From Gemmatimonadota bacterium (lineage in GTDB: Bacteria; Gemmatimonadota; Gemmatimonadetes; Gemmatimonadales; Gemmatimonadaceae): a DNA stretch of 64,000 nt. This document shows, in pieces, positions 1 to 15,000 of this stretch (positions within the stretch are counted from its first letter, which is position 1; every line of letters starts with the position of its first letter). A program made the position numbers. Where the stretch lies: assembly GCA_040389905.1 (NCBI GenBank), contig JAZJZK010000041.1, forward strand, positions 1 to 64,000, written 5' to 3'.

Positions 1-3000
1 CGGCCGCTCACGCCACGGGACAACGCCTGGTATTTTTGCGCCAAGAAGTAACTAATCTGGGCGGGGCGAGCGTACTGCTGGGGGAAGACCAGTCGTGTGC
101 AGCTTGGCATCGGCTCGACCACGAATGCGATCATCCCAACACTGGTGTCCAACGCGCTTTCGTTCACGGCTCTCGCCGCCGAGAACAACTTTACCTGCGG
201 TATCGGCGCGACTCACTATTGCTGGGGAGAGAATGCGCGTGGGTAGCCCGGCGACGGCACGTAGACCGGCAAGGTATCTCCGGTTGCGGTGTCAACCGCA
301 CTCGTATTTTACGTCAATTACGGCGGGACGCGGCTACACGTGCGCACTCATTTCGCGCGGCGCGGCCTACTGCTGGGGCGAGAACAACGGCGGCGAACTC
401 GGTGTCGGTGCGGCGTCCGGCGCGCGTTAGGCGCCGTTGGCCGGCGTCTCACTCCGGGCGAACCCATTCGACTCGGCTCAGTGCAGGTTTTGGCGAGGCG
501 AGCGGGTCCGGAAAACTCATACCCGGAGTGCACCCGCCGATCACTTGCCTCGGGATGACAACAAGCTTCAGGACAGGTGAACTGATGATTGACACGTGGT
601 CCCACGGCACCCATCCTTTGGGTGCCACCCCGCGCGCCCACGTCGCGGACGCGCTGCGAATTCGGGCCGACCGATCCCTCTAAAGGCAATAGGCCCGACC
701 AGAAACGTCCGATAGTCCGTCCGGTTTCAGTTCGCCTCCGCCGCAAAGTATTTCGAAGTCCCTTTCCCCTCTTGGTGAGCGATGACGTTCAAGCCATTCC
801 GCTTCGCGCTGCTCGCGCTGGTACTGATTTTCTCTCTCGTACGATGCGGCGCGGATTCTCCGACCGGTGTCGTCGCGATCGCACTCGATCTTTCATCGGC
901 GACGCTTCGAGTCGGTACCACCGTGCAGGTCAATGCGACGGTGACGGTCGGCGGCGTGACATCAACGCAGACCGTCACGTTCTCGTCTGACAACAGCGCG
1001 GTCTTGAGCGTCACCCCGACCGGGTTGATTCGCGCGCTCACCATCGGAACCGCGAACCTGACCGCGACGGCCAGCTCCGGCGAAACGAAGACCGCCCTGG
1101 TCACCGTCATCGCTGGACTTCCGTTCTCCGTCCAGAAGACGGCGGGTGACGGACTGACGGCGGTTGCCGGGACCACGACGGCCACGCCGCCGACCGTTGT
1201 CGTGCGCGATTCGGCTGGCAACCTGCTCTCCGGGGTTGCGGTGACGTTCGCCGTGGCAAGTGGGGGCGGTTCGGTGACCGGCGCCAGCGCGACGACGAAC
1301 GCTTCGGGCGTCGCAACGGCTGGTTCGTGGACACTCGGCCCGAATGCGGGCACCAATACATTGACGGCGACGGCGACTGGTGTCGCCACCTCGGCGATCT
1401 TCTCCGCCACCGGCACAGCGCCAGTTCCAAGTACCATCGCGATCAATGGCGGCAACGGCCAGACGGCAACCAGCGGATTGGCGGTGCCGGCCGCACCCTC
1501 CGTGATCGTTCGAAACAACCTCGGCCAGCCAGCCGCTGGAGTCACCGTCGTCTTCTCGGTGGGCGCGGGCGGTGGCGTCGTCACCGGCAGTACCCAGGTG
1601 ACCAATGCGAGTGGCATCGCCACGGTTGGTTCGTGGAACCTCGGTGCCGCCGGCGTGAATACGCTCAACGCGACCGCGGCTGGACTGCCCGCCGTGGTCT
1701 TCACCGCCACGGCAACGGCGGCACCATCGAACACGATGAGCGCCAATGGCGGGAATGGACAGAGTGCCGTGACTGGCACCGCCGTCGCCATTGCACCGTC
1801 CGTCATCGTGTTGACGAGCACCGGGCAGCCGGTTCCGGGCACGCAGGTGACCTTTGCCATCGCCTCGGGTGGCGGTTCGATCACCGGCGCCACAGCGATC
1901 ACCAATGCGAACGGCGTCGCCGCGGTCGGCTCCTGGACGCTCGGCGCTGTTGGAGCCAACACGTTGACGGCCTCGGCATCCGGGCTCGGGACGGTCACCT
2001 TCACAGCCACCGCCACCGCGGCGCCCACCGGCAGCCTCGTGTTGAGCGGTTCCTCGCTGTCCTTCGCCGCGGTCGTGAACGGAAACACGCCGTCTGCACA
2101 GAGCATCCAGGTCACGAACAGCGCGACCGGTACGCTGTCCGGTCTCGCGACGGGTACCATTTCCTATTCTGGCCTCGGGACTGGCTGGCTTTCGGTTAGC
2201 CTGAATGGCGCGACGACACCCGCAACGCTCACGGTAGCGATCGCCTCGGCACTGCCTCCCGGTACGTACGGCGCGAGCTTCCCCGTCACGGCGACGGGAG
2301 CGTCCAATAACCCGCAAACGGTCAGCGTCACCTTCGTTGTCGCACCAGCCTCGCAGATCATCGTGACGCAGCAGCCCGCCGGCGCGAGCACGGGGAATCT
2401 CCTCACAACCCAGCCGGTCGTTCGCGTGGCGGATGGCTTTGGCGGTACGATCACCGCCTTCAACGGTCCTGTCACGGCGACGTTGGTCGGGGCCGGCGGC
2501 GTGCTGAGTGGCACGACCACGGTCAACGCGGTGAACGGCATTGCCACCTTCACCAATCTTGTCGTCACCGGGGTTGGCACGTACAGCCTTGCGTTCAGCG
2601 CCACGGCATCGACCGGGACGTCCGCGACCTTCGCGGTCGCGCCATTGCCCCCGACGAAGTTGGGAATGGGCACGCAGCCCGCCGGCGCCGTCAGCAATAC
2701 GGTGTTCAGCACGCAACCGGTCGTAGAACTTCGCGACGTCAACGGGAATGTGGTTACGGGTGCGACCGGAAACGTCACGGTCGCTGTGACTGGCGAGTCC
2801 GGCCCTGGCACGCTCTCCGGCACGCTGACGGTGGCGGCGGTGAACGGCGTCGCCCGTTTCACGGACCTCAAGATTTCTGCCACCGGGTCGTACACGCTCG
2901 CCTTCACGTCTGGAACGCTGACGGGCATCAACTCGGCAACGTTCTCGGTGACCGCCTCGCCGCCAACCAACCTTGGCATCAGCACGCAGCCGGGTGGTTC

Positions 3001-12000: not shown

Positions 12001-15000
12001 ACCACGCGCACGGTGTAACTGCCGGCCGACGGCAGCACGAGATCCATCGTGCCTCCGGTCATCGCGGTGCCCGTCAGCGAAAAGCCGAGGAATCCGCTGA
12101 TACTCGCACCAGAGACCTGCGCGATGTACTGGCGCGCCGTGCGCCCTGATTGCGCGACCGTCAGGTGGACGGTCGGCACTGCTGCGGCAACGGTCAGCGC
12201 GACGGAGGCGGAGACGGCTGGATTGGTGATAGAAGTTGCCGTAATCGTCGTGGTGCCTACGGCCACCGTCGCGACGAAGCCATCGGCGTTGACGGTCGCG
12301 ATGCCCGGATTGCTCGAGGTCCAGGTGAACGATGCGCAGCCCGTCAGGTCGGCACTCGCCGCATTACGCGGCGTCACCGCGAGTTGCAGCGTCCCTCCCG
12401 CGGTAATCGTCTGCGCGCCGCTCGGTGTGATCGAAGCGCTGGCCACGGTTGGCGCGGTGAACGCATCCGTGTTGACGCGCGCGGCCGCGCCGAGCGCTAC
12501 GCTGAAGCGGGCGACCTGCTGCGCATCGATGATGTTCACACTGCCGTCCGCCGTCACGTCGCCGCGGTACGAAAGCGCATTTGCATTGGCGACACTGAGG
12601 CCCACACTGGCGCGAGCGATCTGCTGAGCGTCGATGATATTGACGACGTCGTCGCTGTTTACGTCGCCCCACCTGCCGGACAAGGCCACGCAGACGTCGA
12701 GCCCTCGGGGCCGAAGCAGCTGAAGGATGCTCTCGGCCGTCGCACGCGCAGCCGCCGTCGGAGCAACGGTGACGCGGGTTCCGCCGCTCGTAGCGCCCGC
12801 CGTGAAGTACGCATTCATCAAGCTGCTGCTGCTCGCGAGTGCGGTCGCGTTCGATGTCGTGAACGTCGCCAGGCCGCTGGACAGGCTCGCGCTGAAGCTC
12901 CAACCGAGTCCAGGCACGGTGCGCAGGGAGTCGAGCGTGAGTTGACTCGCACCCCAGCCGATGCTTCCACTCAGCGACGCGATATTCTCCGAGCCGGCAT
13001 TCGTGAGATCCACGACCACCGGAACTGTAATCTTGCCCCCTGGCAATACGACGGCGCTCGGGGCGCTGCCTGCGGACACCGTGATACTCTGTGCGGCGAG
13101 GGGCGCCGCGATGCTGCTCACCGCCGCGAGAAGGGCAACGGCGGCGACGACGCCAAGCGCCCGTTTCCGGGGGGCATTGTCACGGGGTCGATACATCCAG
13201 GTCATGACGCAATTGGCAGGGTCGACGTGGTCGCGGCAAGAGCATCTGAGTGATTTCTCTCTCGGTAGACCCGCTGGCTGTCGCGGACCCCGCATGCTAG
13301 TCTTGCGGCACGGTATACAATTCGATATCCCTTTCAACCGACTGACGAATGGGCGCCATGCGCCTTGCACTCTGTGGCACAGCGCTGATCGCTTTCACCG
13401 CCGCCGGAGCGCAGACGCGCGTGACGGTGCGTGGCACCGCGTACGATAGCGTGCGAGCGCTGCCGATTGTGAATGCGTTCGTGAGTATCGCCGGCAGGAG
13501 CGCGATGACGGACACGGCCGGCTTCTTCCAAATCGACAGTATCACGCCCGGACCGCACACCGTTGCGCTTCAACACGAATCACTCGATTCGCTCGGCCTT
13601 TCCGGCGTCACGGTCAAGTCCGTGGTCACGGACGGGCGTGACACGATTCGCCTGGGAGTCCCGAGCTTCAGCAGTCTCTGGCGCGTCGTGTGCGGTCGGC
13701 CGGCGCCGGCGCTCGATAGCGGTGTCGTCTTCGGGTCGATTCGCGACGTTGCAGCGCAACAACCGGTGAACGGGGCCAGCGTTTCCGCGAGCTGGCTCGA
13801 TCTCACGGTCGGCGCGGGTGGCGCGCTCGCGCAGAAGCGGTGGAAGCTGACCGCGACCTCGGATGCCAGCGGCTCTTATGCCTTGTGCGGTCTACCCGTT
13901 GATGTCGTGACTCAGGTACATGCGGCGACCGACTCGGCGGCGAGTGGCGCAATCGACCAGGTCGTTCCCACAGCGCTCCGCATCCAGCGCCGAGACCTTG
14001 TGGTTGGCACCACGGGCGAGAGCCCGCTGGCGAAAGGAACGATCTCCGGCGTGGTGACGAACGAGGCAGGACGGCCACTGGCCGAGGCGCGTGTGGCAGT
14101 AACGGACGTGCCGGAAGTGAGAACGGACGCCGAGGGGCGCTTTACGATTCGCGGAGTGCGCTCGGGCACGCAACAGCTCGAGGCGCTCTCGCTGGGGCTG
14201 CTCCCTGGTATCGTCGCCGTCGACGTTCGACCGAACGCCGTGGCCGATGTGTTGATCGCCCTCGTCAAGGGTCACACGTTGGATACGGTGAAGGTCAACG
14301 CGACGTCCGTGCGCCGGAACATGATTGCCGACATCGAGAGCCGCCGGAAGAGCGGGACGGGGCACTACATCGATTCGACGAAGGTCAACCAATACCCGAG
14401 GCTCTTGTCCGTCTTCGAGGAGATTCCGAGCACGCGCACGCAAAATGGAGCGGTGTACTTCACCAGCAACAATCCGAAGGGCTGTCTCGCTTACCTCTGG
14501 GTCGACGGGATGCGGATCACTCCGAATCCACGCGATGTGTCCTTCGAGCTTTCGAACATCCAAGCGCTGGACATCGCGCAGATCGAAGTCTACTCGCACC
14601 CTGGATCCGTGCCGATAAAGTTCCAGGGAAAACTGGGACAAGCCTGTGGTGCCGTCGTCATCTGGACGAAGCGCATCCTGCCGTGATTAGATGTCAGTCA
14701 CGACGGAGCGGTAAATAGCGCTGAGTTCGTCTCGCTCGAGAAGAAAACGAGTGGCAGACGCACTTCATATGTTTGGGCACGAATGCTGCCCTTCGGCCCT
14801 GCATGTCGGACTTTGTCATTCGAAGCGATTGCGAGTCGCGGTTCACTGTCAGCGATACGCATTGTGAGGTGATCCTCGAGCAGCTGGTGGCTGCCAAGGC
14901 GCTGTCGAGTGGAGAGCCCCTGCAACTGCTGATTGTGGTTGCGCATCCGGACGACGAAGCAATCGGCGCAGGCGCGTTGCTTCGCCACTATCCGAGTGCG

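Follow-up and report, generated by a model that had tools for sequence, protein, structure and literature searches.

Non-cellulosomal cohesin-dockerin systems as such have been widely reported, which limits the surprise of finding a further one. The planctosome of Nemodlikiaceae, a non-cellulosomal system of a diderm host, was proposed from genomes; the sections of its description cited here contain a large cohesin anchor, one adaptor with both a dockerin and a cohesin, and docked peptidases (Andrei et al. 2019, PMC6461901). In Ruminococcus flavefaciens, the monovalent adaptor scaffoldins ScaH and ScaC carry one cohesin and one dockerin per chain, and ScaH is described in the cited parts as a spacer of variable length between anchor and scaffold (PMC12270676, PMC12484212). 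The cohesins of Archaeoglobus fulgidus (2xdh) and Clostridium perfringens NagJ (2jh2) also stand outside cellulose degradation. For ANME and their partner SRB as well as for Ca. Stygibacter, non-cellulosomal cohesins and dockerins with proposed roles in adhesion are known, including ANME proteins with one dockerin and several cohesins. The cited portions of these accounts present neither a lipoprotein-anchor cassette, nor a passenger family headed by cohesin, dockerin and Ig domains, nor a case from Gemmatimonadota (PMC9012536, PMC10553843, PMC8542988).

The locus described here lies in the window, a stretch of 64,000 nucleotides of a Gemmatimonadota genome (Table 1). According to the genome-wide survey's note, thirteen proteins of this genome start with a cohesin and a dockerin. 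Searches with phmmer, using the N-terminus of g03593 from the window, and then with an HMM found exactly these 13 full modules, at the same places, among 58,357 six-frame ORFs (E-values 2e-105 to 1e-92). The same 13 proteins were returned by a dockerin-only HMM, the next match in the genome ORFs (E 2.6) not being credible. Of the other claims in the note, HMM searches confirmed the extra cohesins, three on g03590 (aa 1139, 2200, 2555) and a fourth on g01904 (near aa 3207), and the D-x-N-x-D motif and both DAQQ motifs are indeed invariant in 13/13 modules. Two of its figures have to be corrected: pairwise identity among the copies is 36–75% instead of 34–48%, the upper value belonging to a tandem pair on contig C5, and the Pfam cut-off is passed by 12 dockerins and 6 of the 19 cohesin domains of the genome instead of by 10 and 2. 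Positions 26–14000 are covered by three overlapping contigs of run X1 with 0 differing letters, an agreement that is not independent because X1 may be the source sample. Promoter and terminator scans gave no signal above chance level, and no RNA data set was listed among those that contain the sequence. The remnant at the start of the window is probably a decayed passenger, judging by its sequence.

Table 1 Features of the cohesin-dockerin cassette in the window
Feature	Position	Strand	Basis
RCC1 propeller gene remnant with stops and frameshifts	1..410	+	72% DNA identity to end of passenger g04128
g03590, 2695 aa, class A anchor scaffold: long Ig-like stalk and three cohesins	782..8869	+	
g03590, predicted lipoprotein, Cys22, atypical Arg at -1	782..8869	+	hand-made signal pattern
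g03590 cohesin 1, aa 1139-1279, binding-face signature intact	4196..4618	+	
g03590 cohesin 2, aa 2200-2340, signature intact	7379..7801	+	
g03590 C-terminal cohesin 3, aa 2555-2695, signature intact	8444..8866	+	
g03591, 175 aa, small predicted lipoprotein consisting of one cohesin-fold domain, class B anchor	9032..9559	+	start and RBS read from sequence
g03592 (paralogue of g03591), 166 aa, class C: small secreted protein, stand-alone cohesin, no lipobox	9578..10078	+	
g03593, 1023 aa, class D passenger: signal peptide, cohesin, dockerin, three Big_2, M8-like zinc protease	10134..13205	-	
g03593 module cohesin, signature lost (Ser, Ser, Ala replace Asn, Phe, Gly)	12684..13091	-	
g03593 first conserved cysteine, Cys172	12690-12692	-	
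g03593 two-repeat dockerin, both repeats with Ile-Ile at 10/11 and Ala-Arg at 17/18	12471..12671	-	
g03593 module Big_2 domain with second conserved Cys (aa 290, 12336-12338)	12186..12449	-	
g03593 leishmanolysin-like (M8) domain, HExxH at 10626-10640	10281..11003	-	Pfam E 1.4e-7

The repeating unit reads as cohesin-dockerin-Big_2 with a cysteine on either side of the dockerin; the earlier description holds for the first two domains but missed the third and the cysteine pair. From a 71-row alignment, AF2 modelled the g03593 module with a pLDDT of 95 and a pTM of 0.84, the latter suggesting a rigid three-domain unit. In this model, the structural counterpart of residues 1–138 is cohesin 6kgc (Z 17.1, rmsd 1.9, 130 residues aligned) and that of residues 139–201 is the type I dockerin 2ccl_B (Z 9.5, rmsd 1.6, 62/62 residues); sequence identity in the top structural matches is 14–25%. 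By their structural matches, the modelled module cohesin and g03591 belong to the cohesins, which are nine-stranded jelly-roll sandwiches of about 140 aa. The dockerin sequence has the two F-hand calcium repeats of type I with D/N at positions 1, 3, 5, 9 and 12. The type I pairs CaCohA2-Doc0917 (6kgc) and C. thermocellum 2ccl share the fold of both domains and the two calcium repeats. Unlike in these pairs, the dockerin here is located near the N-terminus, between cohesin and Ig domain and within a cysteine pair, and is not accompanied by cellulases or CBM3. No solved chain combining cohesin, dockerin and Ig domains is among the structural matches listed for the module model.

The flanking cysteine pair is present in 13/13 own modules and 137/145 homologues, and is retained by the cohesin-less proteins of L045 and L049. 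The second cysteine sits inside the next Ig domain in most homologues; of 13 that seemed to lack it, most carry a cysteine directly after the dockerin. The pair probably closes the dockerin by a disulfide. In this, and in the second cysteine's move into the Ig domain, it would differ from the otherwise comparable intramolecular clasp of R. flavefaciens ScaA, which, in the part of the account cited, holds the dockerin's N- and C-terminal ends together for stability (PMC12270676).

The extra cohesins outside the modules were correctly located by the note, which missed that their carriers g03590 and g01904 are predicted lipoproteins and that two stand-alone cohesin genes follow g03590. One of these, g03592, had been taken for a weak partial match and is a full cohesin homologue. 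The other, g03591, has no Pfam cohesin call; its AF2 model (pLDDT 93) matched cohesin-containing entries in all listed Foldseek hits (best E 3e-6, TM 0.5–0.6), and hhalign gave 96.8% against the other cohesins. Using hand-made patterns, not a trained predictor, a lipoprotein-like signal was seen in 23/24 class A homologues and in 8/12 Big_2 proteins without a dockerin, as against 2/13 with a dockerin, both of which look false by eye. A locus with a module or a dockerin occurs in 27 other genomes; in 22 of them an anchor-type cohesin lies on such a locus, and in 16 the large and small anchor types occur together on one. In L019, L047, L048 and L051, module and small lipoprotein cohesin are joined in a single fusion.

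The cargo of the 13 passengers comprises RCC1 propellers in 7/13, one GH17 and one M8-like protease, so dockerins are not placed on plant-cell-wall hydrolases as in a cellulosome. A scan of 40 of the 150 homologues listed no cellulase family among the best five families per protein, and Pfam listed no CBM3 or SLH on the three-cohesin g03590, whose predicted lipid anchor differs from the SLH or sortase anchor of cellulosomes. Pfam scans gave no lamin-tail, P-proprotein, HYR or M12B/M14 domain above the cut-off (Reprolysin_3 reached E 0.1 on g03593), and NCBIfam gave nothing above the cut-off for 10 proteins. A type II secretion cluster is present in the genome, which makes it a candidate export route; a type IX scan, whose controls stayed silent, returned one SprA-like match that fell short of the cut-off and nothing for the C-terminal sorting domain. 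In architecture the locus is of the planctosome type, with a cohesin anchor, a dockerin/cohesin adaptor and non-cellulolytic cargo. It differs from the planctosome, as far as the cited sections describe it, in that all 13 passengers carry both halves instead of one adaptor, the anchors are predicted lipoproteins instead of a lamin-tail-domain protein, and the cargo consists mostly of RCC1/Ig binding domains (PMC6461901).

All 13 dockerins of the genome share one predicted recognition code. Of 135 homologues, nearly all have I/V-I/L/V at 10/11 and A-R at 17/18 in each repeat, and the calcium ligands are kept. At the level of sequence the recognition residues are symmetric (I/V-I and A-R in both repeats), as in the dual-binding dockerins of the cited account (PMC12484212). 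The dockerin interface of the top structural match is formed by strands 3, 5, 6 and 8, according to the part of the study cited (PMC7608827). The cohesins of classes A, B and C, although only 17–30% identical from class to class, have residues in common that map to strands 5, 6 and 8 or to the ends of these strands, with positions assigned from predicted secondary structure. The resulting signature occurs in 20/22 class A, 15/16 class B and 8/9 class C cohesins, values that are circular because it was read off these classes.

Only 4/13 own module cohesins keep this signature, compared to 79/136 module cohesins from other samples, contrary to the survey's view that every member carries both working halves. 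Among 148 sequences, F80 and G115 are both kept in 88, one only in 9 and 9, and neither in 42; this joint loss looks like one surface decaying rather than drift. It appears distinctly unlikely that every passenger uses both halves, all 13 polymerising into one network with secondary anchors. A cohesin does adjoin each of the 13 dockerins, the face is frequent in other samples, a possible branch point exists as a second cohesin in 13/150 homologues, and module cohesins of the second specificity type share face residues with the anchors. However, the face is kept in few copies here and seems to decay as a unit, and, since the dockerins show one code, the genome has no second dockerin type for changed faces.

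A more modest reading, in which docking to the anchors is all that happens and the module cohesin, in the manner of an X module, only caps the dockerin and the Ig domain structurally, without any chains, is unlikely as well. It would account for the loss of the face in most copies here, for the rigidity suggested by the model and for module-specific conserved residues (R50, L51, D54, F96–A98, G104, T105, D132, C134) away from the signature positions. Against it, dockerin-Big_2 proteins without a cohesin exist (L045, L049), which indicates that the cohesin is not needed for folding. The face is also kept in more than half of the homologues and tracks the dockerin type, and the three module cohesins that score best on the anchor profile (98–101 bits vs 52–80) are face-intact.

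Comparison of the two specificity types points to real binding, as in the second lineage dockerin code and anchor face change together. F/Y80 is found in 37/38 anchors beside A-R-type dockerins and in 0/18 beside other-type dockerins. A branch with a support of 98 separates the small cohesins, whichever their type, from classes A and D; it comes from a quick tree of 89 rows and few columns, from which 9/14 type-1 module cohesins were left out. In their face these small cohesins nevertheless come close to the A/D cohesins of the same type (1.03–1.15 vs 0.66 mean BLOSUM62), which does not hold for the rest of the domain (0.62–0.63 vs 0.76). This co-variation is one contrast between two types in related genomes.

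These results also bear on two readings without any larger assembly. The presence of both halves on one chain in 13/13 would suit a dockerin that binds its own cohesin, or two chains that form a closed dimer. We regard this as very improbable: only about 5–6 residues lie between the last strand of the cohesin and the dockerin, which seems unlikely to reach round to the opposite sheet, nine copies without the face still keep the dockerin code, and neither the lipoprotein cohesins without dockerins nor the co-variation would be explained. That the modules have ceased to bind each other and serve as stalk domains or bind some other ligand is hardly credible. The patchy distribution and the decayed passenger next to the cassette would fit, as would one of five small-cohesin genomes that lacks a dockerin match (another has only a weak one); in the former, however, the contig ends right after the small cohesin. 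Moreover, the dockerin is the most conserved part (53–79% identity within the genome vs 30–74% for the cohesins) with its calcium ligands kept, and even between deeply split paralogues the faces vary together with the dockerin.

Taken together, we favour, with rather more confidence than doubt, a non-cellulosomal display in which lipid-anchored cohesins dock secreted passengers of adhesin type, a minority of which extend chains while the rest cap them. Sockets would be supplied by g03590 (three cohesins), g01904 (one) and the small g03591. The 13 passengers would lose their signal peptide without gaining a lipid, and their N-terminal cohesin-dockerin-Big_2 unit would replace the lipid anchor. 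The calcium-binding, putatively disulfide-closed dockerin would fit every socket of the one specificity type present in the genome. In 4/13 passengers, own cohesin and dockerin match at the level of sequence and may share one specificity, which would permit insertion in series; with a working face, these would accept a further passenger, like ScaH-type adaptors, and the nine with a decayed face would end the chain. In the cited accounts ScaH is a dedicated cargo-free adaptor in a monoderm's cellulosome (PMC12270676, PMC12484212), whereas in this genome every cargo protein has the adaptor unit built in, with a Big_2 domain behind the unit, and most copies no longer have the face. As the cargo is mostly of the binding type (RCC1 propellers, Ig stalks), a changeable adhesive coat with few hydrolases is the likely job. 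Against the display model, with the signature missing in 9/13, most passengers would carry a domain without a binding role, and the g03590 lipobox is atypical.

The 'self-assembling surface' of the note survives in part, as a probable cohesin-dockerin surface complex supported indirectly by the single code, the predicted lipoprotein anchors, the cassette and the co-variation of face and code. The attribute 'lineage-specific' applies at phylum level and not below: within Gemmatimonadota the module has a patchy distribution, and searches of 3 genomes from the same genus did not find it. A genome-specific expansion was rejected, as the 13 copies are not a single clade.

Members of the Gemmatimonadota are frequent in soils and waters. 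To our knowledge, little is known about their surfaces. The proposed display would be a defined route by which some of them present adhesin-like proteins of giant size that do not each bear a lipid. For designed scaffolds it would also be useful as a natural source of two cohesin-dockerin specificity types, which are probably orthogonal, and of a dockerin that is probably closed by a disulfide. If chains are extended, a surface layer would arise from cargo proteins that are their own scaffold. A step-wise polymerisation of cargo, started by lipoprotein cohesins, extended by passengers with live cohesins, branched by those with two and capped by those with dead ones, is possible but doubtful. 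If true, the thickness of the coat would be set by the proportion of live to dead heads, and the two specificity types would mean compatibility at the level of clones, possibly also between cells.

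The source bin, which includes the window as part of contig C41, is 5.08 Mb in size (84.6% complete, 1.5% contaminated) and its named relatives are Gemmatimonadota. An HMM search of all six-frame ORFs recovered the 13 full cohesin-dockerin modules at the coordinates reported in the genome-wide survey's note, each at the head of a secreted passenger protein. A dockerin-only profile returned the identical 13 proteins and no other credible dockerin in the bin, indicating that each dockerin detected there sits behind a cohesin. Both folds are supported for the window passenger g03593 by a confident AF2 model of its head (pLDDT 95, pTM 0.84), the structural matches being to type I cohesins (Z 17.1) and, over 62/62 residues, to a type I dockerin (Z 9.5). 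Two figures of the note required correction. Identity between the copies ranges from 36 to 75%, not 34–48%, and the bin encodes 19 cohesin domains instead of 17. The two added domains belong to g03591, for which a cohesin fold is predicted, and g03592, previously regarded as a weak partial match; both align with other cohesins at 96.8% probability.

The genes form a cassette, in which a large lipoprotein with a C-terminal cohesin comes first; next are a small cohesin lipoprotein and, in many cases, a small secreted cohesin, and then passengers. A genome scan yielded 46 loci, of which 45 from 27 genomes were kept; the one excluded is from Saccharibacteria and its sole dockerin is a distant one. 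An anchor-type cohesin was found on a locus in 22/27 genomes and both anchor types on one locus in 16/27; since the cassette profiles were derived from those same loci, detection is not independent of them, but gene order is. Four loci encode the small lipoprotein cohesin and the module as one fused protein. Locus L051, from a record titled Dehalococcoidia, is arranged as in the Longimicrobiales locus L047, reflecting either a binning error or transfer.

Features in the window and at other loci of the bin
Position	Feature	Observation
Window 1-55	Probable insertion element end, adjoining a decayed RCC1 gene	Identical to starts of contigs C20 and C40; also matches a deeper 2 kb contig in sequencing run X1
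Window 449-563	Intergenic repeat (ca. 115 bases) upstream of g03590	Copies 70-78% identical on C5, C7, C15, C23, C64
Window 782-8869	g03590, large anchor	Three cohesins
Window 8878-8922	Long hairpin, rich in G+C, in the g03590–g03591 spacer (by eye)	Could control the large:small anchor ratio
Window 9032-9559	g03591, anchor	Cohesin
Window 9578-10078	g03592	Cohesin
Window 10081-10128	Short element between converging g03592 and g03593	Likely REP-like repeat or shared terminator; matched by many other X1 contigs, local depth 83 vs 13
Window 10134-13205 (minus)	g03593, passenger	
Window 15633-19594	Cellulose-synthase-like glycosyltransferase (by eye) and PIG-L-type deacetylase-like ORF	Just downstream of cassette
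L002:5011-17127	g00492/g00493, tandem passengers	Modules 75% identical, C-terminal non-repeat domain nearly identical in both; judged a recent duplication
L009:3985-15702 (minus)	g01904, anchor (3905 aa), away from cassette	Cohesin internal, then ca. 560 residues without listed Pfam match
L069:1609-8218	DUF499, DUF7680 and DUF1156-methylase genes directly behind type II secretion cluster	Looks like a defence locus

The anchors g03590, g01904 and g03591 carry lipoprotein-like signals. By a crude pattern, the same holds for 23/24 large homologues with C-terminal cohesin, the exception being a passenger itself and one call probably taking the wrong cysteine. Signals of the 13 passengers are cleavable and end before Gln. 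Among the bin's Big_2 proteins, lipoprotein-like signals occur in 8/12 without dockerin versus 2/13 with dockerin (both false by eye), which suggests that the module may replace the lipid anchor on passengers. As the note had stated, the passengers are unrelated: RCC1 propellers occur in 7/13, a GH17 domain in one, and an M8-like protease domain that has the HExxH motif in another. Ig stalks and InlB B-repeats were also found, and a scan of 40 of 150 homologues showed LamG, Kelch, PD40, ricin-type, fibrinogen-like, pentapeptide, M8 and alpha/beta-hydrolase domains. Such cargo would fit adhesion or ligand capture better than polymer degradation. The bin also encodes a type II secretion cluster; it is located on C5, is not linked to the cassette, and might serve for export.

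Median identity among the 13 modules is 66% for dockerins compared to 38% for their cohesins, and the dockerins have one recognition code in common, present in both repeats. Anchor classes are 17–30% identical; the few common residues are N69, F80, G115 (g03593 module numbering) and flanking glycines. F80 probably corresponds to Leu89 of the C. cellulolyticum cohesin. All these common residues are located in strands 5, 6 and 8 or at their ends. In CaCohA2, the top structural match of the module cohesin, strands 3, 5, 6 and 8 form the dockerin interface (PMC7608827). Leu89 of C. cellulolyticum is described as a pocket residue in another report (PMC12484212). A second dockerin type in other genomes features a small residue at position 10 and Leu at 17. 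Anchors have F/Y80 in 37/38 cases at loci of the first type (18 loci) versus 0/18 at loci of other types (9 loci). Small cohesins of both types share one side of a branch with a support of 98. At 17 outward positions on the four interface strands they are closer to own-type large-anchor and module cohesins than to each other, whereas elsewhere in the domain the relation is inverted. This co-variation is one contrast among related genomes, and the sharper 8-position version of the comparison was picked after the data were seen. Specificity type does not simply follow taxonomy, as G148 (locus L030, assigned via ORF sizes) and G410 (L063) belong to the same genus but differ in type. Anchor-passenger docking has good indirect support from these sequence patterns.

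A Big_2-type Ig domain follows the dockerin in 13/13 modules, resulting in a three-domain unit. Two cysteines are invariant in these modules, at the cohesin end and in a loop of the Ig domain, against a module background frequency of 0.07%. Of 150 homologues from a 50%-cluster library (8 from the present genome), 145 were scored (4 unparsable, 1 too short), and cysteines flank the dockerin on both sides in 137. The second is located in the Ig loop (110), directly after the dockerin (23) or in both places (4). In the remainder, the upstream cysteine is missing within 14 residues (6), only the upstream one is present (1) or neither is (1). Proteins at loci L045 and L049 lack the cohesin, yet keep dockerin, Ig domain and both cysteines. 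We infer that the pair would form a disulfide clasp around the dockerin; DsbA-family genes are present in the bin.

Module cohesins fall into two kinds, with and without the whole N69/F80/G115 signature. With 4 gapped rows set aside, 79/136 homologues have it whole. In the bin it is whole in 4/13 (g02655, g00812, g00810, g04128), where 12 were scored and the gapped thirteenth lacks it by eye; the g03593 cohesin has lost the face. F80 and G115 are lost jointly (both present in 88, one only in 9 and 9, neither in 42), any P value being inflated by sequence relatedness. Most passengers here can thus probably dock but not be docked on, and chain extension by passengers is partially supported.

The note's term "lineage-specific" holds as far as the system is restricted to the phylum, where it is patchy; within the family, 11/150 genomes match and 5/150 have the full module, but none of three genomes of the same genus does. 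Among 400 genomes of the phylum, the present dockerin type was matched in 9 (4 strongly) and small cohesins in 20 (10–20 candidates scored per genome). Five small-cohesin genomes are without this dockerin type: three have Pfam dockerins above cut-off, which belong to tandem cohesin-dockerin passengers encoded immediately after the small cohesin, one has a weak match, and one has none, with the contig ending there. A fresh expansion is rejected on a tree of 43 modules: a minimum of 5 label changes is needed to place the 13 copies, and 0/200 bootstrap trees unite them in a single group. On this phylogeny, the set is judged to be old or gathered.

In the literature searched, no report of Gemmatimonadota cohesins or dockerins was found; subscription papers and supplements may list such proteins. 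Publications describe non-cellulosomal cohesin-dockerin systems in Planctomycetes (PMC6461901), Cloacimonadota (PMC8542988), and ANME and their partners (PMC9012536, PMC10553843), as well as R. flavefaciens adaptors with one cohesin and one dockerin (PMC12270676, PMC12484212). Taken together, we conclude that the phylum-restricted surface display system is real. Non-cellulosomal systems being already known in other phyla, that of the Gemmatimonadota is a variant of this kind.
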